A stretch of DNA of 9,612 nt. Source: a virus (lineage: Duplodnaviria; Heunggongvirae; Uroviricota; Caudoviricetes). The stretch lies in IMG/VR virus record IMGVR_UViG_2636416140_000002. One strand, given 5' to 3'. Position numbers and translations under genes: made by a program. The notes under the pieces are model-generated. The model saw nothing but the letters and a program-made list of their open reading frames with translations. It searched no databases and was not told the DNA's origin. Of this stretch, positions 1 through 9,612 are shown one piece after another. The stretch's first letter is position 1; each line of letters begins with the position of its first letter.

Positions 1-533
1 GAAAAACCAGAGATAAGACAGCGCCAAAATATAAAGCGTTAGACATGACAGAGCTTTCCCTAAAGGTGGCAATCAGAACGATAGACCGACACGTAGGGGA
101 AGGATACGCGAAGGAACATCCCGACCTGATAAGCGCATTCATGACCACAGCAGCGGCAAACTTTGCCACGCTGACAGAACGGGAGATTGCCGAAGCGGAA
201 CAGGTAACAACCATCAACGTTAAAACCGGAGAGGTGGAATCATGAGCGAACCAAAATTTGGTGAAAAACTTTACAAGCACAACGGACGGATCACGATTCA
301 GCAAATAAGCGCAGCTACACCAGGCTGGTGGGTTGAAACAGACGAAGGATCATCAACCGTGGCATCATGGGCGCTTTGTGTGCTTAGTTACCCTGACCGC
401 GATGTGTATCAGGATATTCTGCCTGTGATATCCACTGACAAAGGCATGAAACCCGTAGACATCAAAAACATGGGTTTTCAGTGCGTAATGCTCACTGAAA
501 AAATGATGGAAGAGATGAAAAAGAATAACGCCG
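1..533 (+). repeat. Direct repeat copy 1, apparently identical to 716-1248; truncated by the window start
   Basis: Read directly: 1-533 matches 716-1248 base for base (offset 715). Identity ends at 533/534 in copy 1 and 1248/1249 in copy 2. The repeat may extend upstream of the window. Confidence 0.9.
45..245 (+). CDS. Hypothetical small protein (66 aa from ATG 45), copy 1; frame is open to the window start, so the true start may lie upstream
   Basis: ORF with decent codon usage; its stop overlaps the next ORF's start (ATGA at 242-245), suggesting translational coupling. Identical second copy at 760-960. No recognisable family. Confidence 0.5.
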   Translation: MTELSLKVAIRTIDRHVGEGYAKEHPDLISAFMTTAAANFATLTEREIAEAEQVTTINVKTGEVES

Positions 534-712
534 TGGGGAATTTAACAAAATTGAAACATAATTACCCACTTTCCCACCTGTATATACCCAAAAAAGTGGG
601 GAGTAAAAAATATATTGAAAAACATCACGTTAGAATCACCAAAAAAAGAGGTGGGGAGACGGTGGGTAATTTCAAAAAGTGGGGAGCAAAAGTGGGGAGT
701 AGTGGGGAATGA
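242..712 (+). CDS. Hypothetical protein, duplicated copy 1; first 97 codons identical to 957-1262, then reads through into the iteron region (probable chimeric C-terminus created by the duplication junction)
   Basis: ORF track 156 aa. C-terminal part is encoded by GTGGGGA repeats and A-tracts (VG/KK-rich translation), which looks non-native. Copy 2 ends 3 codons after the divergence point. Confidence 0.4.
   Translation: MSEPKFGEKLYKHNGRITIQQISAATPGWWVETDEGSSTVASWALCVLSYPDRDVYQDILPVISTDKGMKPVDIKNMGFQCVMLTEKMMEEMKKNNAVGNLTKLKHNYPLSHLYIPKKVGSKKYIEKHHVRITKKRGGETVGNFKKWGAKVGSSGE
533..711. repeat. Iteron-like array: at least 7 direct (A)GTGGGGA(G) repeats plus inverted half-sites (CCCACTTT, CCCACC), separated by A-tracts and an AT-rich core; putative replication origin
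   Basis: Direct GTGGGGA copies at about 533-539, 595-603, 651-658, 679-687, 691-699, 701-708 and variant GTGGGT at 662-667; inverted copies at 565-578; AT-rich stretch 541-650. Confidence 0.6.
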
Positions 713-960
713 ACAGAAAAACCAGAGATAAGACAGCGCCAAAATATAAAGCGTTAGACATGACAGAGCTTTCCCTAAAGGTGGCAATCAGAACGATAGA
801 CCGACACGTAGGGGAAGGATACGCGAAGGAACATCCCGACCTGATAAGCGCATTCATGACCACAGCAGCGGCAAACTTTGCCACGCTGACAGAACGGGAG
901 ATTGCCGAAGCGGAACAGGTAACAACCATCAACGTTAAAACCGGAGAGGTGGAATCATGA
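709..960 (+). CDS. Hypothetical small protein, copy 2 (83 aa from ATG 709; 66 aa if the start is ATG 760)
   Basis: Identical to the 45-245 ORF over the shared part. ATG 709 lies inside the last iteron with GGGGAG about 9 nt upstream; ATG 760 has no obvious SD. Stop overlaps the next start (ATGA). Confidence 0.5.
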   Translation: MNRKTRDKTAPKYKALDMTELSLKVAIRTIDRHVGEGYAKEHPDLISAFMTTAAANFATLTEREIAEAEQVTTINVKTGEVES

Positions 961-1248
961 GCGAACCAAAATTTGGTGAAAAACTTTACAAGCACAACGG
1001 ACGGATCACGATTCAGCAAATAAGCGCAGCTACACCAGGCTGGTGGGTTGAAACAGACGAAGGATCATCAACCGTGGCATCATGGGCGCTTTGTGTGCTT
1101 AGTTACCCTGACCGCGATGTGTATCAGGATATTCTGCCTGTGATATCCACTGACAAAGGCATGAAACCCGTAGACATCAAAAACATGGGTTTTCAGTGCG
1201 TAATGCTCACTGAAAAAATGATGGAAGAGATGAAAAAGAATAACGCCG
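716..1248 (+). repeat. Direct repeat copy 2 (identical to 1-533)
   Basis: See copy 1. The 715-bp period equals the 533-bp block plus the 182-bp iteron region, consistent with a tandem duplication of an iteron-plus-gene unit. Confidence 0.9.
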
Positions 1249-1262
1249 GATCGCTTCACTGA
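957..1262 (+). CDS. Hypothetical protein (101 aa), copy 2, probably the intact ancestral version
   Basis: ORF translationally coupled to the upstream small ORF; stop at 1260-1262 overlaps the SD of the downstream SSB gene. No recognisable domain by eye. Confidence 0.55.
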   Translation: MSEPKFGEKLYKHNGRITIQQISAATPGWWVETDEGSSTVASWALCVLSYPDRDVYQDILPVISTDKGMKPVDIKNMGFQCVMLTEKMMEEMKKNNAGSLH

Positions 1263-1271
1263 GGTGGCAAT

Positions 1272-1682
1272 ATGACAGCACAAATTGCAGCTTACGGGCG
1301 GCTGGTGGCTGACCCGCAGTTAAAGACCACCAGCAAGGGTACACAAATGACGATGGCGAGTATGGCGGCCCCCCTTCCGTGCAGCCAGGCAGATGACGGA
1401 ACGGCGACGATGTGGTTATCCGTCCTGGCATTTGGCAGACAGGCCGAATCACTGGCAAGGCACCGCAAGGGTGAACTCCTGACCGTGGCGGGTAACATGC
1501 AGATCAGCCAGTGGACCGGACAGAACGGGGAAACGCGGCAGGGTTATCAGGTTATTGCAGACAGCGTAATCAGTGCCCGTGCGGCACGTCCTGGCGGGAA
1601 CAGACGCAAAACCACAGGCACACAGGGTAATCAGCCACCAGCGGGAGACGATGACCCCTACGGTGATGATATTCCGTTCTGA
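1272..1682 (+). CDS. ssb: Single-stranded DNA-binding protein (SSB, OB-fold) of mobile-element type
   Basis: SD GAGGTGG at 1261-1267. OB-fold-like core (WLSVLAFGRQAESLARHRKGELLTVAGNMQISQWTGQNGETRQGYQVIADSV), Gly/Gln/Pro-rich linker and canonical acidic C-terminal tip DDDPYGDDIPF (compare E. coli SSB ending DDDIPF). Confidence 0.88.
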   Translation: MTAQIAAYGRLVADPQLKTTSKGTQMTMASMAAPLPCSQADDGTATMWLSVLAFGRQAESLARHRKGELLTVAGNMQISQWTGQNGETRQGYQVIADSVISARAARPGGNRRKTTGTQGNQPPAGDDDPYGDDIPF

Positions 1683-1694
1683 GGGGTGGGGACG

Positions 1695-1967
1695 ATGGTA
1701 CATGACCGCATAGCGGAAGAACTGGAGGCGAAAGGCTTTTACCGGAGAGCGTCGGCGCGATGGGGTGAAGTCATGCAACTGGTGGAGACAGACAAGGAAC
1801 GGCATCACATCACGATGCGACGGCTGGAATGTTCCAGGAAGGCACAGAGGCCACCGGAGCCGCCGGATAATTACGGAGACCTGAAAAAGGCGGTCGATCG
1901 CACTTATGCCGAAATGGGTATGGATGGTGCTGGTGATGAAATATGGCGAAATTACCAGGACAGATAA
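1695..1967 (+). CDS. Small putative transcriptional regulator, possibly PerC-like (ORF track start GTG 1686; ATG 1695 preferred)
   Basis: N-terminus MVHDRIAEELEAKGFYRRASARWGEVM resembles, from memory, PerC-family small activators; not verified by search. GAGG upstream of ATG 1695. Followed by a strong terminator. Confidence 0.5.
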   Translation: MVHDRIAEELEAKGFYRRASARWGEVMQLVETDKERHHITMRRLECSRKAQRPPEPPDNYGDLKKAVDRTYAEMGMDGAGDEIWRNYQDR

Positions 1968-1973
1968 TCACAC

Positions 1974-1998
1974 AGCCGGAGCAATCCGGCTTTTTGTC
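1974..1998 (+). terminator. Rho-independent terminator
   Basis: Stem AGCCGGA (1974-1980), loop GCAA, stem TCCGGCT (1985-1991), followed by a T-run (TTTTTGT). Confidence 0.75.
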
Positions 1999-2013
1999 AT
2001 GTTTTGTAAATTA

Positions 2014-2040
2014 TTTGTTCGTGGTTGTTCCACGTTGTTC
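2014..2040 (+). promoter_or_regulatory. Three TTGTTC hexamers at exact 10-bp phase (2015, 2025, 2035) upstream of the capsid operon; candidate regulator binding site or promoter element
   Basis: Read directly. The 15-mer TTGTTCCACGTTGTT (2025-2039) recurs exactly at 9392-9406. A possible weak -10 (TATTTT, 2057-2062) lies 16 bp downstream of the last hexamer. Confidence 0.45.
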
Positions 2041-2115
2041 GCTGACCGGATCGGCATATTTTACCCGACCTGAATCATGATTATTCTCGCCCGTGGTGCC
2101 AGGACGCTGGGGCCA

Positions 2116-2165
2116 TTTTCCCGCCTGTTAATGTGCTCGCCAATATTCATTACCAGGCGGGAAAA
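2116..2165 (+). promoter_or_regulatory. Perfect 12-bp inverted repeat TTTTCCCGCCTG / CAGGCGGGAAAA with 26-nt spacer in the capsid operon leader
   Basis: Arms at 2116-2127 and 2154-2165 are exact reverse complements. A 36-codon uORF (2077-2187) without SD spans both arms. Confidence 0.4.
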
Positions 2166-2255
2166 CGATCGGTGCGATTACTGATTTCCTTATGAAAAAC
2201 GGTTGAGTGTTTGCCGCGTCCTGGAGTTCCTTACTTAACCCCAGGACTTTTTTTT

Positions 2256-3413
2256 ATGCCGAGAATAATCGAATTACGCCAGCAGAAAACCGCCATTAAA
2301 AATCAGATGCGCGACATGCTGGAGAACGCGGAAAAAGAAAACCGCAGCCTTAACGATGCAGAGGGCGCAAAATTTGACGAATTACGCGCTAAAGCTGAAT
2401 CCCTCGATAAAGACATTTCCCGCCTTGAAGCCATTGCAGACGAAGAGCGCAGCAAGCCAGGTAAAAGCAGTCAGACCACTGACCCCGCAGAACTCCGCAA
2501 CTACATTCTGACAGGTGAAACCCGCGCATTAAGTACAGGCGTTCCCGCTGATGGTGGTTATACCGTTATCCCTGAACTGAACACCGAAATCATGCGAATG
2601 CTGGCGGATGAATCCACCATGCGCCGCATCTGTACCGTGAAGAAAATCAGCAGCAACGAGTTTAAGCAGCTTGTTTCCGCTGGCGGTGCGACCGTTAACC
2701 ACGGTGAAGAGGGTAAGGCACGCGAACAGACCAGCACCCCGCAGATTAACGAGGTGAGCATCAAGCTGTATCCGGTCTATGCGTACCCGCGCACCACACA
2801 GGAAATCGTGGATTTTTCCGATGTGGACATCCTTTCATGGCTGACGGGTGAGATTGGCGACACCTTCACGGAAACCGAAGAAAGCGATCTGGTTGTGGGC
2901 GACGGTGACAAAAAAGCAAAAGGTTTTTTATCCGTACCCCGTGCAGAGAAGAACGACAAAGAGCGTGATTTTGGTACGTTGCAGGTAATTAAACCTTCCG
3001 AATCTCTGGCGTGGACATCTGCGGACCCGCTGATCGACCTGAAATTTGCATTACGTAAAAAATACCGCAAAAACGCGGTCTGGGTGGTTAACTCCACGAC
3101 GGCGGCAAAACTTCAGAAGGTGAAGAACGCGAACGGTGATTATATCTGGCGCGACCGTTTACAGGCGGGTGATCCTGATACGTTGCTGGGCCTTCCGGTC
3201 GAATATCTGGAGTTTATGCCTGATAACGTTATTGCCCTGGGTGACTTCAAACGCGGTTACTACATTGTTGATCACGAAACAGGTGTTCGCACCAGACCGG
3301 ACAACCTGACAGAACCAGGATTCATCAAAATTTTCACGCAAAAATATTTAGGCGGTGGCGTGGTGGATTCGAACGCGATCAAGATTCTGGAACTGCCGGA
3401 AGACGACGATTAA
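2256..3413 (+). CDS. Phage major capsid protein, HK97 family, with N-terminal scaffolding (delta) domain
   Basis: 385 aa from ATG 2256 (ORF track starts at TTG 2211). Coiled-coil-like N-terminus (ELRQQKTAIKNQMRDMLENAEKENRSLNDAE...) followed by an HK97-fold-like body; AGGA 10 nt upstream of ATG. Confidence 0.92.
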   Translation: MPRIIELRQQKTAIKNQMRDMLENAEKENRSLNDAEGAKFDELRAKAESLDKDISRLEAIADEERSKPGKSSQTTDPAELRNYILTGETRALSTGVPADGGYTVIPELNTEIMRMLADESTMRRICTVKKISSNEFKQLVSAGGATVNHGEEGKAREQTSTPQINEVSIKLYPVYAYPRTTQEIVDFSDVDILSWLTGEIGDTFTETEESDLVVGDGDKKAKGFLSVPRAEKNDKERDFGTLQVIKPSESLAWTSADPLIDLKFALRKKYRKNAVWVVNSTTAAKLQKVKNANGDYIWRDRLQAGDPDTLLGLPVEYLEFMPDNVIALGDFKRGYYIVDHETGVRTRPDNLTEPGFIKIFTQKYLGGGVVDSNAIKILELPEDDD

Positions 3414-3423
3414 CAGCATACAG

Positions 3424-3452
3424 AAGGGGCTTAAAAGCCCCTTTAGTGTTTT
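3424..3452 (+). terminator. Hairpin immediately after the capsid gene (partial terminator or mRNA-stabilising stem-loop)
   Basis: AAGGGGC (3424-3430), loop TTAAAA, GCCCCTT (3437-3443), then TAGTGTTTT. The U-tract is interrupted, so read-through into the protease gene is likely. Confidence 0.5.
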
Positions 3453-4025
3453 ATGGGTGAAAAAATTATGAAGAGTATGGAAATCCGGTCATCGGAAATC
3501 ACCACCAGCGCCAGCAACACGCTTACAGGCTACGTTGTTCGCTGGGATAACCTTTCAGAGCTGCTATGGGGGGAGTTTTACGAAAAATTCCAGCGGGGAG
3601 CGTTTACTGAATGGCTTGCGGCGGGTAATGACGTTCGCGGCCTGTATGAGCATGACCACAGCATGTTACTGGGGCGCACCCGTTCCGGCACGCTGAAACT
3701 GGAAGAGGACGAAACAGGGTTACGCTTTGAACTGACCCCACCGGATACCAGTACAGGGCGCGACGTTATCGAACTGGTTAAGCGTGGGGACATCTCGGGG
3801 ATGAGCTTTGGCTTTCGCTCCCGTAAGGATGTATGGGATACCACAACAGATCCATGCGTGCGCACCGTGCTGGTGGCGGAACTGTACGAAATTACCGTTA
3901 CATCGGTACCGGCTTACCCCGATTCCGGCGTGGAGCTGGCCCGCCGTTCCCTGTATGAGCAGCACCCCGAAAAAATGCCGCGTGCGGATAATCGCCGCTG
4001 GTGGGCGGATTTAGCGGGGGTGTGA
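3453..4025 (+). CDS. Phage prohead (maturation) protease, HK97 family
   Basis: Motifs typical of HK97-type prohead proteases (GYVVRW..., EHDHSMLLGRTRSGTL, GMSFGF). Alternative starts at ATG 3468 and 3477; none has a clear SD. Confidence 0.9.
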   Translation: MGEKIMKSMEIRSSEITTSASNTLTGYVVRWDNLSELLWGEFYEKFQRGAFTEWLAAGNDVRGLYEHDHSMLLGRTRSGTLKLEEDETGLRFELTPPDTSTGRDVIELVKRGDISGMSFGFRSRKDVWDTTTDPCVRTVLVAELYEITVTSVPAYPDSGVELARRSLYEQHPEKMPRADNRRWWADLAGV

Positions 4026-4026
4026 T

Positions 4027-5238
4027 ATGTGGCCTTTCAGAAGAAAAAAAGAGCAGCGCAGCATGACGCTTGATGAGTTTATGGCGCTGGCTGGCACATC
4101 GAACACGGGGGCGGGTGAGTACGTATCATCGGGGACAGCGGAATCACTGCCCGCCGTCATGAACGCCGTCACGGTCATCTCTGAGGCGGTGGCTACCATG
4201 CCGTGTTACCTGTACCTGGTACGCAATGAGAAGGGGAAGGAGGCCCGAGAGTGGCTTGATTCTCATCCGGTCGATCACATCCTCAACGAGCGCCCGAACG
4301 CGTGGCAGACTCCCTACCAGTTTAAGCGAATGATGATCCGCCACTGCCTGTTAAACGGTAATGCTTATGCGGTGATTCAGTGGGGGCGTGATGGTTTTCC
4401 GGTGGCTTTACATCCTTACCCGCCGCAGTCGGTGAACGTGGAGCAGACAGGCGAACACAACTGGCGCTACTGCATCACTGACGCCTACACCGGAAACACC
4501 CGCAACTATTTACCGTGGGAGGTTCTCCACCTTCGTTACTCCACGGATGACGGTTTTATGGGGCGCTCACCTGTAACCATCTGCCGCGAATCGCTGGGGC
4601 TTGGGCTGGCCCAACAACGCCACGGCGCGAGCGTGATGCGTGATGGCATGATGGCGGCAGGGGTTATCACGTCAGGCGAATGGCTGGACGGCGTGAAGGG
4701 CAAACAGGCATTAGCCGCACTGGAACGCTACAAAGGGGCCAGAAACGCCGGAAAAACGCCCATCCTTGAAGGGGGTATGAGCTATCAGCAGCTGGGCATG
4801 AGTAATCAGGATGCTGAATGGCTGGCCTCCCGTCGCTTCACCATTGAAGACATCGCCCGAATGTTCAACGTCTCGCCGATTTTTTTGCAGGAATACAGCA
4901 ACAGCACCTACAGCAATTTCAGCGAGGCAAGCCGCGCATTTCTCACCATGACGATGCGCCCGTGGCTGGCGAACTTTGAGCAGCAGATAAAAAACGCCCT
5001 GCTGGTGGCCTCGCCTGTACCTGGTATCCGGTATCAGGTGGAGTTTGACAGCGCGGACCTGTTACGGGCCACACCAGGCGAACGCTTTGCCACCTATGAA
5101 CGCGGCATCAAATCCGGCGTTATGTGCCCGAACGAAGCCCGCGAACGTGAAGGGCTGTCCCCGCGTGATGGTGGTGATGAGTTCAGCCAGGCATGGAAAC
5201 AGGAAGTAAAAATCAGCGAGGGAGAAAAACCGGAATGA
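4027..5238 (+). CDS. Phage portal protein, HK97 family
   Basis: 403 aa. Start is 1 nt after the protease stop, with a GGGGG SD. Central and C-terminal regions look like HK97-type portals; acidic C-terminal tail. Alternative start ATG 4063. Confidence 0.92.
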   Translation: MWPFRRKKEQRSMTLDEFMALAGTSNTGAGEYVSSGTAESLPAVMNAVTVISEAVATMPCYLYLVRNEKGKEAREWLDSHPVDHILNERPNAWQTPYQFKRMMIRHCLLNGNAYAVIQWGRDGFPVALHPYPPQSVNVEQTGEHNWRYCITDAYTGNTRNYLPWEVLHLRYSTDDGFMGRSPVTICRESLGLGLAQQRHGASVMRDGMMAAGVITSGEWLDGVKGKQALAALERYKGARNAGKTPILEGGMSYQQLGMSNQDAEWLASRRFTIEDIARMFNVSPIFLQEYSNSTYSNFSEASRAFLTMTMRPWLANFEQQIKNALLVASPVPGIRYQVEFDSADLLRATPGERFATYERGIKSGVMCPNEAREREGLSPRDGGDEFSQAWKQEVKISEGEKPE

Positions 5239-5573
5239 ACATAGGGCGACTGCGTGACAGGGTAACGATTCAGACCCTGAAACAGACCAGGGATATAACC
5301 GGCGAAATACTCGAAACGTGGGAGGACGGTCACACACTCTGGGCAAGCGTGAACATGATCAGCAGCAAGGAGGCCATTTCATCGGGTGCAGAGCTGGCGA
5401 TTGGTACCGTAAGGATCTGGATACGGTACCGGAAGGACATCAACGCCACCAGCCGGATAAAGGTCAGTACGGGGCCGCTGGCGGGGCGTGTACTGAATAT
5501 CATCGGGCAGCCGCTGCCGGATGCCGCCAGGACACGCCTTGAAATTCTTTGTCGTGAGGGCGCGGAAAAATGA
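5235..5573 (+). CDS. Head-tail adaptor / head-closure protein (head-tail joining family)
   Basis: ATG 5235 overlaps the portal stop (ATGA). 112 aa with a pattern typical of phage head-tail joining proteins (RDRVTIQ..., ...WASV..., ...RIWIRYR...). ORF track's longer start at 5193 is less likely. Confidence 0.75.
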   Translation: MNIGRLRDRVTIQTLKQTRDITGEILETWEDGHTLWASVNMISSKEAISSGAELAIGTVRIWIRYRKDINATSRIKVSTGPLAGRVLNIIGQPLPDAARTRLEILCREGAEK

Positions 5574-5866
5574 CAGAAGAACTTATCACCCTGGAAGAAG
5601 TGAAACTCCATTGCCGCATCGATGGCGACGAGGAAGACCAGTTAATCAGCGGATACATTGCCGCATCGCTTGAGGCGTGCCAGATACATATAGGCAGGCG
5701 CTTTGATGACGGGCTGGAGTTCACGCCAGCCATAAAGATTGGCTGCATGATGTTTATCGCTCACCTGTACGAGAATCGCCAGCTGGTAGCGGATAACGCA
5801 AAAACGCGCGTACCCATGACGATTGGCGCGCTCTGGACGGCTTACCGTGATGTGGGGGTGTACTGA
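5570..5866 (+). CDS. gp6-like head-tail connector protein
   Basis: ATGA overlap with the upstream gene. N-terminus ITLEEVKLHCRIDGDEEDQLISGYIAASLEACQ is characteristic of gp6-like connector / DNA-packaging proteins. Confidence 0.82.
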   Translation: MTEELITLEEVKLHCRIDGDEEDQLISGYIAASLEACQIHIGRRFDDGLEFTPAIKIGCMMFIAHLYENRQLVADNAKTRVPMTIGALWTAYRDVGVY

Positions 5867-6306
5867 TGCCGTGGCAACCATTAAGACGATGCACAGAACC
5901 AGGCTGTAACAGGCGCGTGAAGTCCGGCAAGTGTGAGGAGCACAGGCGGGCGGCATGGCGTGCAGAGGATGCCAGACGAGGACACCGCCGCGCGCGTGGG
6001 TACTCCAGACAGTGGGACAAATACCGCGCCATGTATCTGAGTAAAAACCCGTTATGCGTGCGATGCCTTGAGAAGGGGATATATACGCCCGCCGTGGTGG
6101 TGGATCACATTATCCCGATTAATGGCGGTGATGATGTTCTCTTCTGGCCCGAATGGAACCATCAACCATTGTGCCAGGCGTGTCATAACCAGAAAACGAA
6201 ATGGCTTGATCCGGCAACAAAAAGCAAGCGTGCCGCAGGTGGATTTCATGAAGAGGAAGAACGGGCCGCTAACCGCAATAACTGGATGTATGACGCTGAT
6301 GAATGA
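5866..6306 (+). CDS. HNH endonuclease (packaging-associated, adjacent to terminase)
   Basis: Cys-rich N-terminus (C..PGC...GKCEEH) and HNH core (VVDHIIPINGGDD...NHQPLCQACHNQKT). TGATG overlap with the connector gene. Position just upstream of terS is typical of cos-type HK97-like systems. Confidence 0.9.
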   Translation: MPWQPLRRCTEPGCNRRVKSGKCEEHRRAAWRAEDARRGHRRARGYSRQWDKYRAMYLSKNPLCVRCLEKGIYTPAVVVDHIIPINGGDDVLFWPEWNHQPLCQACHNQKTKWLDPATKSKRAAGGFHEEEERAANRNNWMYDADE

Positions 6307-6472
6307 GCGGGAACAAAACCGCCTTATCCGTGGACTGATAAGGCAGCGTGACGCATGGAAGACACAGGAAACAGGGCATAAAGATAAAGCGTCAGGACGC
6401 GCAGAACGCATCACAGCGAAGCGATTAACCGACCGTGGCCGCGAGGTTATGGAATGTTTCCGCAATCGCTGA
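6299..6472 (+). CDS. Hypothetical small ORF (57 aa) in the HNH-terS interval; may instead be a displaced fragment of the terS 5' region
   Basis: ATG 6299 overlaps the HNH 3' end; weak SD. Sequence ...SGRAERITAKRLTDRGRE loosely resembles Arg/Lys-rich N-termini of small terminases. Low confidence. Confidence 0.3.
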   Translation: MNEREQNRLIRGLIRQRDAWKTQETGHKDKASGRAERITAKRLTDRGREVMECFRNR

Positions 6473-6542
6473 TGAGGCTGTATGACGGGGTGGGGGGCGT
6501 TTTCAGGACAAACCCGACCCCGCCTACCTGGATGACATCGCC

Positions 6543-6854
6543 GTGAAGCAGTGGCGGGAAAAATCGCGGCAGCTTGCGGAACGGGGAGACCTGACCCCCG
6601 CCGACTGGAGCAATCTGGAACTGTATTGTGTCAACTACTCCATTTACCGGAAAGCCGTCGCAGACCTTGCGGCGCGCGGGTTCAGCATTGTTAACAGTCA
6701 GGGCGGCGAGAGCAGAAACCCCGCATTAAGCGCGAAATCAGACGCTGAAAGGGTGATGATAAAAATGGCCTCCTTGCTCGGTTTTGACCCGATAAGCCGC
6801 CGTAAAAACCCACCGGAAACAGAAGAAGAGGACGAGCTTGACCGCCTGGAATAA
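6543..6854 (+). CDS. terS: Terminase small subunit, P27/HK97-gp1-like family; annotated in-frame part only, N-terminus appears frame-disrupted
   Basis: Conserved-looking core DLTPADWSNLELYCVNYSIYRKAV. The family motif appears to begin upstream of the first in-frame start (GTG 6543) as ...KPDPAYLDDIA in the same frame, which is closed by a stop at 6483-6485. A good SD plus ATG at 6454 is in the +1 frame. Confidence 0.8.
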   Translation: MKQWREKSRQLAERGDLTPADWSNLELYCVNYSIYRKAVADLAARGFSIVNSQGGESRNPALSAKSDAERVMIKMASLLGFDPISRRKNPPETEEEDELDRLE

Positions 6855-8499
6855 GTACGCAGAAGACGTAAAAACGGGCAAAATTCCGGCCTGTAAACGG
6901 CTGAAACAGGCCGTTAAACGGTACTTTTCGGACCTTAAAAGCCCCCTTTACACGTTCGATCGTGAGGTTGTGGAGCGGTTTATTGCCTTTTCCAGGGTGT
7001 GCCCGCACGTAAAAGGACCGATGCGTGGCAGACCCATTGAGCTGGAGCCGTGGCAGCAGTTCGCCTTTGCGTGCATCCTCGGCTTTAAGGTTAAGGCCAC
7101 CGGACGGCGCAAATACACGAGCGCCTTTATCGAAGTGCCGCGCAAAAATGCGAAATCCACGACCGCCGCGATTCTGGCTAACTGGTTTCTGATTATGGAG
7201 AACGGTCAGCAGGATATCTACACCGCAGCGGTGAGCCGTGACCAGGCGCGGATCGTCTTTGATGATGCGCGTCAGATGTGCCTTTTATCCCGACCGTTAC
7301 GCAGGCGGGTGAATATTCAGGCGCATAAGGTGATACACCCGAAAAGCAACAGCCTGTTAAAGCCGCTGGCAGCAAAAGCGGCAACCATCGAGGGAACAAA
7401 CCCAAGCCTTTCCATCGTGGACGAATACCACTTGCACCCCGATAACGGCGTTTATTCCGCGCTTGAGCTGGGGATGGGCGCACGTCCCGAAGGGCTGTTA
7501 TTTGCCATTACCACATCAGGCAGCAACGTCGTTTCAGCCTGTAAACAGCACTATGATTATTGCTGCCAGATCCTGGACGGCGAAGAGGTTAACGATTCAA
7601 TTTTTGTACTGATTTACGAACTGGACGACGAAAACGAGGTTGATGATCCGGCGATGTGGATAAAGGCGAACCCTAATATTGATGTTTCCGTCGATCGTGA
7701 AAAACTGGCCTCAACCATCCAGAAAGCGCGGGGTATTCCGTCGCAGTGGGTGGAGATGATGACAAAGCGATTTAATATCTGGTGCCAGGGGGCTACCCCG
7801 TGGATGGGTAACGGCGCATGGGCTGAGTGTGCCGGAACGTTCACGGAGGAAGATTTACACGGCCAGGAGTGTTACGCGGGGCTGGACTTATCATCAACCA
7901 GCGATATTTCCAGCGTGTGCTATGCCTTTCCGGTCGGTAAAACCATTATGCTGGTTTCCCGTCACTATCTGCCGGAATTTCAGCTACAGAACCCCGCCAA
8001 TAAAAACCGCGCCATCTATCGTCAGTGGGCTAAAGCAGGCTGGATACGCACAACGCCTGGCGACTGCATTGATTACGACCGGATCAGAGATGACATCATG
8101 CAGGACGCGGAGAAATTTAATATCAGGCTGGTGGGCTTTGATACGTGGAACGCCACGCATCTCAGAACGCAATTACAGGGGGCAGGTTTTGAGGTGGAGC
8201 CGTTCCCGCAAACCTACCTCAGATTCAGTCCGGCGGCGAAATCGTTCGAAGTTTTTGTTAACCGCAGGGTGATTGTGCATCGTGGCGATCCGGTGTTGTC
8301 CTGGTCGATGAGTAACGTCGTGATGCAGAGTGACGCGAACGCCAATATCAAGCCGAACAAGAAAAAATCACCGAACAAGATAGACCCGAGCGTGGCGGCG
8401 CTGATGGCGTTTGGTACATTCCAGGCAGAGCATGAGGATTTTGCTTTTGATATAAGCGACAGCCACCGCCAGAAACTGGAAGAATTTAGCGGGGTGTAA
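6838..8499 (+). CDS. terL: Terminase large subunit (ATPase and nuclease)
   Basis: 553 aa. TTG start with GAGGA SD 5 nt upstream, overlapping the terS 3' end. N-terminus AWNKYAEDVKTGKIPACKRLKQAV and ATPase region are typical of large terminases; acidic residues in the C-terminal nuclease part. Confidence 0.93.
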   Translation: MTAWNKYAEDVKTGKIPACKRLKQAVKRYFSDLKSPLYTFDREVVERFIAFSRVCPHVKGPMRGRPIELEPWQQFAFACILGFKVKATGRRKYTSAFIEVPRKNAKSTTAAILANWFLIMENGQQDIYTAAVSRDQARIVFDDARQMCLLSRPLRRRVNIQAHKVIHPKSNSLLKPLAAKAATIEGTNPSLSIVDEYHLHPDNGVYSALELGMGARPEGLLFAITTSGSNVVSACKQHYDYCCQILDGEEVNDSIFVLIYELDDENEVDDPAMWIKANPNIDVSVDREKLASTIQKARGIPSQWVEMMTKRFNIWCQGATPWMGNGAWAECAGTFTEEDLHGQECYAGLDLSSTSDISSVCYAFPVGKTIMLVSRHYLPEFQLQNPANKNRAIYRQWAKAGWIRTTPGDCIDYDRIRDDIMQDAEKFNIRLVGFDTWNATHLRTQLQGAGFEVEPFPQTYLRFSPAAKSFEVFVNRRVIVHRGDPVLSWSMSNVVMQSDANANIKPNKKKSPNKIDPSVAALMAFGTFQAEHEDFAFDISDSHRQKLEEFSGV

Positions 8500-8512
8500 T
8501 GAGGTCAGCAGC

Positions 8513-8794
8513 ATGACAGAAGCCGAAATAACGGGATTAATCCGCCGCGTTGCCGGAATCAGCCAGCAGGCTGACGAACAGGCCACGCAGCCGGACAGCG
8601 TGACAGCCGAAAACTATGCGCGTGTTGTTGCTGAGGTGATGCGCCGTGATGGTATAGAACTTAATGGCGTGGATATGCGCAACATACGAACCAGAGTTCT
8701 TGAGTTGCTGGCCTACCGTCGCCGCGTGGAGATGTATCGGGAGAAGGAGAAAATAACGTACCACTGGAAGAAGCCGGAGCGGTTGCGGCGGTAA
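8513..8794 (+). CDS. Hypothetical protein (93 aa), last gene of the packaging operon
   Basis: Good SD (GAGGT) 7 nt upstream, tight spacing after terL, reasonable codon usage. Charged, likely helical; no family recognised. Confidence 0.6.
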   Translation: MTEAEITGLIRRVAGISQQADEQATQPDSVTAENYARVVAEVMRRDGIELNGVDMRNIRTRVLELLAYRRRVEMYREKEKITYHWKKPERLRR

Positions 8795-9048
8795 CTGGTT
8801 GATATTCCCGACGGCCCAAAAATGGGTTGGCTACACCCCTCACAACTACGACATTTTCGCAGTTTAATTAATGGTCAGCTTAATCGCTAACCCGCTGATA
8901 TTTTCGGAAACCTCAATTTGAGGAAGTCGGCGCGGTAACTCGCTGAACTTTAAGCAAAGCGCAAAATTGCGCTTGCTGAATAATCATTATGATTACGCAG
9001 ATGATTAAGGAATGACCGAAGGCGGAAATTCGCCTGTGGTTAATGGGG

Positions 9049-9068
9049 GAGTTGCAGATCTGCAACTC
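9049..9068. promoter_or_regulatory. Perfect 20-bp palindrome GAGTTGCAGATCTGCAACTC (contains GATC)
   Basis: Reverse complement is identical to the sequence; lies in non-coding DNA downstream of the packaging genes. Confidence 0.6.
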
Positions 9069-9117
9069 GACCATGAAACTACGGAAACTACCCGTAGTTT
9101 GGGTAGTAAGAGTAACA

Positions 9118-9157
9118 CCCAGATTTTGGGGCTTACTCGTGATACCCAAATTTGGGG
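9118..9157. repeat. Two near-identical palindromic units CCCAGATTTTGGGG (9118-9131) and CCCAAATTTGGGG (9145-9157) in direct orientation
   Basis: Read directly; each unit is itself dyad-symmetric (CCCAAATTTGGG is a perfect palindrome). Confidence 0.55.
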
Positions 9158-9301
9158 TATCAGTGGCAACCATAACGACTTTCGTTACGGTTGATGCTTT
9201 TACCCCATTGGGGGAAAGGTATTACGATAATCATAACACCTACCGAACAGGTAAAGCCCACCAGCCTGATTAACGTTTAACCGGAAAAAAATTCCGGTAG
9301 G

Positions 9302-9313
9302 TGGGGATCCCCA
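9302..9313. promoter_or_regulatory. Perfect 12-bp palindrome TGGGGATCCCCA (contains GATC)
   Basis: Read directly; immediately downstream of hairpin CCGGAA-AAAAA-TTCCGG (9281-9297). Confidence 0.5.
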
Positions 9314-9381
9314 TATCGACATTAACGCCCCTCATGAATTGGTGTGCTTCCCCCTGGAAAGATGATCCGCCTGTATATTTC

Positions 9382-9407
9382 TTGTGTCTATTTGTTCCAC
9401 GTTGTTT
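9382..9407 (+). promoter_or_regulatory. Second copy of the 10-bp-phased TTGTKY triplet, including the exact 15-mer TTGTTCCACGTTGTT (9392-9406) shared with 2025-2039
   Basis: Hexamers at 9382 (TTGTGT), 9392 (TTGTTC) and 9402 (TTGTTT). Confidence 0.45.
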
Positions 9408-9424
9408 CATACAGTGCACCGAAC

Positions 9425-9446
9425 GGTGTAGTCACTGGTGTAGTCA
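9425..9446 (+). repeat. Direct repeat GGTGTAGTCA x2 (period 12 bp), preceded by dyad CACCG-AA-CGGTG
   Basis: Copies at 9425-9434 and 9437-9446; candidate arm-type or regulator binding sites. Confidence 0.4.
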
Positions 9447-9492
9447 TTTTGCGATTTTTGGCACTTTTTGCGGTGTTAATTATTTAATTAAA

Positions 9493-9612
9493 TCAATGTG
9501 TTATGCGAAATAAGTTATATATAACAGCAATAAATAATGCGAGAATAAACGGCACGATGATCTCGGCGGCAAAACGGATACCGCAGAGAATAATGACCAG
9601 CATTCCCAACAT
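9493..9612 (-). CDS. 3' end of a minus-strand ORF encoding a hydrophobic (membrane) segment; ATG sits exactly at the window edge, so it is either a complete 39-aa small membrane protein or the C-terminus of a longer flanking gene
   Basis: Reverse-strand translation [39 protein letters not shown], stop at 9493-9495. GC-rich third positions in the first 20 codons suggest real coding. Not in the ORF track because it is under 60 aa within the window. Confidence 0.4.

Follow-up and report, generated by a model that had tools for sequence, protein, structure and literature searches.

A 97-bp deletion between short direct repeats, and not a homopolymer frameshift, probably underlies the truncated small terminase gene and the loss of a candidate cos region in a capsid-forming PICI of Shigella flexneri

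The stretch of DNA analysed here, referred to throughout as the window (9,612 nt), corresponds in full to contig ANAN01000208.1 of the Shigella flexneri draft assembly GCA_000815945.1. On it lies the packaging half of a capsid-forming PICI (cf-PICI) whose integration site is tqsA, and the contig end falls inside this element. A remnant of tqsA at the right end, at about 9497-9612, is the integration site of the siblings found in E. coli STEC299 and CD45. The CD45 sibling extends over about 15 kb from its integrase to the tqsA remnant, encodes a RepA helicase, an SSB and a PerC protein and has no tail genes; cf-PICIs are delimited as elements of about 10-18 kb with an integrase and a replication module and without tail or lysis genes. 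Within the window, Pfam and PHROG searches showed no tail or lysis genes. The features on which the following account depends are these:

2256-5866, plus strand: head module of the cf-PICI, all of it intact (Pfam hits, tblastn against STEC299 proteins, PHROG)
2256-3413, plus strand: major capsid protein, in the head module
3453-4025, plus strand: prohead protease (S78), in the head module
4027-5238, plus strand: portal protein, in the head module
5235-5573, plus strand: head closure protein (PHROG match)
5570-5866, plus strand: head-tail connector, in the head module
5866-6306, plus strand: HNH endonuclease, 146 aa (PF01844, E 1.7e-8; 100% identical to WP_001145904.1)
6290-6472, plus strand: conserved 60-aa gene (hyp60), phrog_3173 (PHROG E 6.6e-36; WP_000174068.1 of relatives, 98% identical)
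6454-6546, plus strand: fortuitous 30-aa ORF, MFPQSLMRLYDGVGGVFRTNPTPPTWMTSP and a stop, in the +1 frame and running through a run of six G residues (G6)
6486-6511, no strand: block A, CGGGGTGGGGGGCGTTTTCAGGACAA, which holds G6 and is retained; non-coding, probably the right-end part of the cos region
6518-6524, no strand: deletion junction, a single remaining CCCCGCC (alignments with STEC299, S. flexneri SFBU1023 and sibling L197)
6519-6854, plus strand: remnant of terS, a P27-family small terminase gene; native codons 8-118 and the stop, without start codon or leader
6838-8499, plus strand: terL, 553 aa, TTG start, intact (PF03354 and PF20441)

The packaging operon has the gene order of a cf-PICI, namely capsid, protease, portal, head connectors, hnh, terS and terL (Pfam, PHROG, tblastn), and the same order has been reported for the cf-PICIs of Proteobacteria (bioRxiv 10.1101/2022.09.08.507074). 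Apart from terS, the packaging genes are full length and gap-free at 97-100% identity in tblastn with STEC299 proteins, and the exact terL protein is present in 9878 blocks of public assemblies. The HNH endonuclease is presumably the packaging accessory nuclease of HK97-type cos systems. Gene order and protein families are as in the cf-PICIs EcCIEDL933, EcCIGN02175 and KpCIDSM30104, the last of which (L091) also has conserved upstream blocks in common with the window family. Unlike these islands, the window copy is without the terS start and without a conserved non-coding block, here called block B, and carries a 715-bp tandem duplication in its accessory region. Given the deletion of the terS start and block B, the window copy is a defective derivative of a cf-PICI, lacking a complete TerS and the putative cos of its own. 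Near the right attachment site, window 9012-9291 matches only residues 8-49 of a 100-aa STEC299 hypothetical protein (83% identity), and the short ORFs there encode 60 and 76 aa; a further accessory gene may have decayed at this place.

The duplication lies at the left end, where window 1-533 equals 716-1248, and is a perfect 715-bp tandem repeat relative to the sibling L197 (GCA_017283095.1), with its junction at 533 and 1 nt of microhomology. It repeats a two-gene cassette (phrog_1231 and phrog_27268) and creates a chimeric 156-aa ORF at 242-712, which NCBI has named as a Shigella flexneri protein. Lying at the contig end, the duplication may be real or may be an artefact of assembly.

The first-pass annotation had described the N-terminus of terS as frameshifted at the G6 run, with the true protein opening at an ATG in the +1 frame. 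Every element of the geometry on which it relied is indeed there. The first canonical in-frame start of terS is GTG 6543, which opens an ORF at 6543-6854 (plus strand) of 103 aa; an in-frame TGA lies at 6483-6485, and the translation from there (RGGGRFQDKPDPAYLDDIA) contains no ATG, GTG or TTG codon before the terS body. The G6 run occupies 6492-6497, and the arithmetic by which one extra base in it would yield a fused ORF of 133 aa is correct. The GAGGT (6444-6448) and ATG 6454 taken as the start signal of that ORF also exist, but both belong to the coding sequence of the upstream 60-aa gene, which ends ..cgc GAG GTt atg GAA TGt ttc cgc aat cgc TGA, and do not form a dedicated start signal; the C-terminus which they encode (..REVMECFRNR and a stop) is conserved across genera. 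Similarly, the sequence read as a conserved N-terminal motif, KPDPAYLDDIA, is native TerS in its P-AYLDDIA part (from codon 8), but its 'DKPD' portion is translated intergenic DNA joined to the gene by a deletion. Undeleted relatives, too, have an ORF from the ATG equivalent to 6454; it is left unannotated and terminates within the non-coding block.

Two side observations concern these frames. In the deletion allele, the TGA of ORF 6454-6546 overlaps GTG 6543 (GTGA), a classic layout for coupling from which low-level re-initiation of a truncated TerS could result. In the S. flexneri run SRR8551538 (L195), TTA replaces the TGA at the equivalent of 6483-6485 in the deletion allele and opens a 139-aa ORF (P0001) from a GTG inside the 60-aa gene, either by chance or as a partial restoration of TerS expression.

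Where terS truly begins is evident from its homologues. In tblastn the window encodes TerS residues 8-118 at 100% identity, and the true start, MARPPKAPAYLD..., is conserved in all genera sampled. An ATG start followed by the pattern M-A-R-x-P-K-x-P-x-Y-L was found in 28 of 28 elements translated from other genera (Klebsiella, Aeromonas, Citrobacter, Serratia, Erwinia, Xenorhabdus, Photorhabdus, Proteus, Pectobacterium and others). In an alignment of 42 sequences the N-terminus reads MARPPKxPxYL[DN][DE], with P5, P8 and Y10 invariant and R3 and K6 nearly so. Conservation at the protein level starts exactly at MARPPK, which is preceded by an SD-like AGGAAA and, in most genera, by in-frame stops just upstream. 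The full-length N-terminus is present in all 80 IMG/VR relatives and in most of 80 species-representative loci (28 of the 28 translated). The first-pass annotation had proposed an alignment of homologues as the means of defining the N-terminus, and such an alignment places the start at a separate ATG, at MARPPK; the terS of the window has lost both its N-terminus and its start. Profile searches add to this picture: the remnant still matches PF05119 (E 1.4e-23), and with TIGR01558, the match to which begins at residue 6 of intact TerS, the 103-aa ORF scores 51.7 bits (cut-off 45.6) from profile position 13, as against 60.1 bits from position 1 for an intact sibling. Gene callers choose the GTG start even in intact genomes, and the 103-aa product is therefore useless for counting carriers of the deletion.

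Alignment of the window with STEC299 over 6280-6620 shows identical flanks on both sides, the same G6 and a clean gap of 97 bp in the window, located 21 nt downstream of the G6 tract. In the intact sequence a 7-bp direct repeat, CCCCGCC, flanks the 97 bp on either side. The missing bases, CCCCGCCGGGCACCGA(A/C)CGCCTCCTCAAATTTTTATGCACGGGAATTTTTTGAAAAATAATCTGACGAAAAATAAGCATGGCAAGACCACCGAAAGC, comprise a variable spacer, the conserved block B, the terS leader, and the ATG with codons 1-7 (MARPPKA); about 70 nt of them are intergenic DNA. Over window 533-6524 the identity of the sibling L197 is 100%, and over 6518-9612 it departs from the window at a single base; it retains the 97 bp together with a terS of 118 aa.

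These comparisons bear directly on the possibility that terS is frameshifted at G6, whether by a sequencing error, a 1-nt mutation or programmed slippage, with a true protein of about 133 aa starting at ATG 6454 (MFPQSL...). The ORF geometry does permit fusion after a +1 change in G6, and in a related clade with five G residues ORFs of 165 aa have been called from the same ATG (P0013). The latter arise for no other reason than that the G-run is one base shorter, and for this very clade PGAP annotates a protein of 118 aa. The intact, 100%-identical sibling L197 has the same G6 along with a separate 118-aa terS, as STEC299 has the same G6; relatives have runs of anything between 4 and 9 G residues; conservation begins at MARPPK and does not extend to the MFPQSL... 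peptide; and what separates the window from its relatives is a gap of 97 bp, not an indel of 1 nt. As at homopolymer frameshift sites, a G-run lies between two overlapping frames. Such sites are, however, runs of conserved length between conserved coding frames, with the lesion in the run itself, whereas the run here is non-coding, varies in length and is unchanged relative to intact alleles. The probability that remains for a frameshift is thus close to nil. Of the three explanations offered earlier, a homopolymer error falls on the identity of G6 in intact siblings and slippage-based expression on the non-coding nature and variable length of the run, and the 133-aa fusion is contradicted by PGAP and by protein conservation, both of which put the start at MARPPK. 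The third, a genuine inactivating mutation in a packaging-defective element, came closest, but the lesion is a 97-bp deletion and not a change in G6.

Taken together, it is very probable that terS has been truncated at its 5' end by a 97-bp deletion bounded by CCCCGCC, which removed the start of the gene and a probable cos, and that packaging has in all likelihood been lost with them. Replication slippage or microhomology-mediated joining between the two CCCCGCC copies would produce the 97-bp loss. The deletion appears to be recent, given that all other genes are intact and that L197 differs by a single base besides the deletion and the 715-bp duplication. Shigella is a genome lineage known for gene decay, and the clean loss between 7-bp repeats with one copy left resembles the pseudogene deletions between short direct repeats of this genus, from which it differs in that the identical deletion is found on two haplotypes and at two chromosomal sites. 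It is probably an ordinary microhomology deletion that disables packaging in a known kind of satellite.

The DNA lost with the start codon is itself strongly conserved. In an alignment of the 200 nt upstream of terS from 30 elements of more than 15 genera, block B (CCGACCGCCTCCTCAAATTTTTATGCACGGGAATTTTTTGAAAAATAA), absent from the window, has a mean column conservation of 0.88, with 32 of its 52 columns at least 90% conserved; its consensus reads ACCGCCCGCCyCCTCAAATTTTTAyGCACGG...TTTTTTTGAAAATAA. The corresponding values for block A (GGGTGGGGG..TTTTCAGGACAAA) are 0.77 and 14 of 26 columns, and those for the adjacent coding DNA, at the 3' end of the 60-aa gene, are 0.55 and 4 of 77. The G-run within block A differs in length between related loci: about 156 of them have 4 to 9 residues, with 5 in 85 loci and 6 in 57, which excludes a role in coding or in programmed slippage. 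The G6 tract of the window is thus untouched and non-coding, and is predicted to lie on the other side of the cos cut from block B. No Rfam family, plus-strand promoter or plus-strand terminator was found in the intergenic region, and with these scans empty we discarded the idea that it acts as an RNA element, a promoter or a terminator. Both blocks are also seen to be conserved across more than 15 genera in loci L091-L169, over L001 7287-7380 (window 6486-6517 plus the deleted DNA). Inverted repeats occur in the two blocks as well: one is formed by GGGGTGGGG and CCCGACCCC, and another, which surrounds the predicted cut, by TTTTCAGGACAAACCCG and CGGGAATTTTTTGAAAA.

Packaging of cf-PICIs follows an HNH-dependent cos mechanism (bioRxiv 10.1101/2022.09.08.507074), and their DNA has cohesive cos ends (bioRxiv 10.1101/2025.02.11.637232). 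The cf-PICI papers that confirm the cos ends and the need for terS do not give the coordinates of cos. In phage HK97 (gp74, gp1, gp2), cos is cut between the HNH gene and terS, with a G-run about 50 nt before the cut and terS at +50, and an HK97-type cos is characterised by a defined cut that leaves 10-nt 3' overhangs, with TerS bound at 15-29 bp downstream. HK97 TerS has been shown to bind from +15 to +29 from the cut and to use its N-terminal arm (PMC11331095). The HNH gene lies just upstream of the site in HK97, as it does of the putative site here, and the order of G-run, GACCGCC, predicted cut, A/T-tract and terS ATG at about +50 appears to be shared. When the joined HK97 ends (3.3 kb) were searched with an nhmmer profile of the cf-PICI upstream regions, a single match was obtained, and it runs across the cut (E 0.0012, weak at 9.1 bits): it spans 683-763, the cut falls after 733, and the G-run, GACCGCC and the T-run that is TerS-bound in HK97 occur in the same order. 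In pairwise comparison the similarity to HK97 is not significant for the E. coli element, being reached by 244 of 2000 shuffles; for the Pasteurella element Pmp8 it was reached by 6 of 2000. A weak fold match to 8pop_A is a further point of likeness. Unlike HK97, the TerS encoded here belongs to the P27 family (PF05119/TIGR01558), and its comparison with HK97 gp1 found no protein sequence similarity; the DNA similarity is weak and the cut is only predicted.

From the conservation of the blocks and their collinearity with HK97 cos, supporting lines that agree while each is weak, we infer that block B holds the cos cleavage site and the TerS-binding site. The cut of cf-PICIs is predicted to fall near the boundary between CCGCCTC and CTCAAATTTTT, within CCGCC(T/C)CCTCAAATTTTT, about 49-50 nt before the terS ATG and hence within the 97 bp that the window has lost. 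The best candidate for the cos site of cf-PICIs is accordingly the conserved non-coding DNA lying between hnh and terS, with an HK97-like layout. A virion-derived linear record, vB_KppS-Ant (L002, LR881103.1), gives an indirect hint in the same direction. It equals the cf-PICI of K. pneumoniae ATCC 13883 (DSM 30104) minus 69 nt. Comparison with L091 1250-1560 puts these 69 nt, which hold block B, precisely at the point where the two ends of the record would meet. The boundaries share ACGAA; either cos ends that exist in the virion DNA dropped out during assembly, or a further small deletion has occurred.

What the deletion would mean for the island can be considered in the light of EcCIEDL933, in which mutation of each gene of the packaging module, including terS, abolished transfer, with the exception of one hypothetical gene that only severely reduced it (bioRxiv 10.1101/2022.09.08.507074). 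Full-length TerS would not be made from the window allele; at best, a poorly initiated product without the first 10-15 residues would be expected. The TTG start of terL overlaps the 3' end of terS, and terL is for this reason probably translationally coupled to terS; its translation would probably be lowered through this likely coupling. Above all, the predicted site at which terminase and HNH would cut to begin packaging is gone, along with the predicted TerS-binding site; the island should therefore not package, and a supply of TerS in trans would not be expected to restore packaging. It would still form capsids but would neither package nor transfer itself.

It is very unlikely, by comparison, that the deletion is real and the element nonetheless packaging-competent, with a truncated TerS made from CTG 6528 or GTG 6543 and a cos located elsewhere, in block A or inside terS. 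PGAP does annotate a product of 108 aa in deletion carriers, starting at CTG 6528, and GTG is the start picked by gene callers even in intact genomes; no packaging gene other than terS is damaged in the window or in certain S. flexneri carriers (L200), block A is retained, and ORF 6454-6546 has a good SD and a stop whose GTGA overlap could permit re-initiation at GTG 6543. No Shine-Dalgarno match, however, is present in the 20 nt upstream of GTG 6543, and none precedes CTG 6528 either. The lost N-terminal arm is nearly invariant across genera, and block B surpasses all other DNA of the region in conservation and lines up with the cut and the TerS site of HK97. Moreover, several carriers at a second chromosomal site, next to phoQ (L170, L172, L173), are further decayed, for instance by a split capsid gene and a shortened terL, as would be expected after loss of packaging. 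In annotation, terS is to be marked as a pseudogene truncated at its 5' end and the island as probably defective in packaging, and G6 should not be 'corrected'.

The deletion is not confined to the window. An identical junction occurs in independent S. flexneri assemblies (CP182556, GCA_000281795, GCA_000213455 and GCA_027263715), with S. flexneri SFBU1023 among the carriers, and lies there in a cf-PICI next to phoQ; this makes the deletion a real, heritable type of allele, and the 108-aa product with the CTG start annotated by PGAP is seen in 55 blocks. Among 5426 complete E. coli genomes the junction was found in none and the undeleted region in 515. The exact 36-nt junction pattern was not found in IMG/VR or the JGI metagenomes, nor was a shorter pattern there; the 36-nt pattern missed a carrier among the GTDB representatives because of a C/T SNP inside it. 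A second S. flexneri cf-PICI, the phoQ-adjacent one, is of a different haplotype and has the same deletion fixed. It differs from the window at 68 sites in 3.3 kb, with the nearest distinguishing SNPs at 6438 and 6536.

The existence of this second island raises the question of whether the deletion in the tqsA copy could be an artefact of draft assembly, for example through reads of the phoQ-adjacent cf-PICI merged into the contig. The window is a short 9.6-kb contig of an old draft assembly with a suspicious perfect repeat of 715 bp at its left end, S. flexneri commonly carries the second cf-PICI with exactly this deletion, and among 24 contigs read with the private hyp60 variant of the window none has the deletion, terS being intact in them. 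The contig nevertheless follows the tqsA haplotype at every other distinguishing site, without mosaicism over 9 kb, and among the matching sites are 6438, which lies 79 nt to the left of the junction, and 6536, which lies 12 nt to the right of the repeat. At 6536 the window has C, where an assembly path of k-mers crossing the phoQ junction would carry T, and an assembler is not led astray by a repeat as short as 7 bp. An artefact is on these grounds quite improbable. A collapsed-repeat consensus, also considered as the source of the deletion, is unlikely, as no other site is mosaic. As for the private variants themselves, window 6337 (T>G, silent) and 6438 (A>G, Asp to Gly), both in the 60-aa gene, are specific to the window lineage and are found in 49 blocks.

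If the deletion is real at both sites, its origin there may be single or double. Each deleted haplotype has an undeleted sibling of its own (L197 for the window, L174 for the phoQ carriers), as would be expected if the repeat pair had slipped twice, independently. It is also conceivable, though less likely, that the window acquired the deletion by ectopic gene conversion from a co-resident phoQ-adjacent cf-PICI. The window comes from S. flexneri, the one taxon in which the deleted phoQ copy is common, and the junctions are identical to the base. Conversion would, however, have had to stop short of the SNP at 6536, within the 18 identical bases that separate it from the junction, and on the other side to remain to the right of the SNP at 6438. 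Homologous exchange usually needs a tract much longer than this, although patchy repair of a heteroduplex could account for it. The same deletion at two S. flexneri loci offers a small case study of satellite decay or taming.

A comparable lesion exists at a third location. A cf-PICI remnant next to fis/dusB (L191-L193 7001-7468, P0069) has a deletion of 618 bp with 5 bp of microhomology, through which the predicted cos region has also been lost; HNH residue 46 is joined in frame to TerS residue 10, and the right breakpoint lies a few bases from that of the window. In view of this deletion and of the identical one on two haplotypes, one may speculate that deletions across the predicted cos do not come from random slippage but are scars left where the island's own terminase and HNH protein cut a chromosomal cos and the break was closed by microhomology-mediated end joining. 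The chances of this being so are slim, but, if it were true, self-inflicted breaks at cos would constitute a recurrent route to the immobilisation of cf-PICIs in which the capsid genes are kept intact. Lastly, a look-up that itself selects for this position returned contigs of many independent assemblies (35 blocks, L201-L208) that start within 1 nt of each other at the equivalent of window 6526-6527, two bases past CCCCGCC in terS, and this shared start may mark a repeat boundary between co-resident islands.
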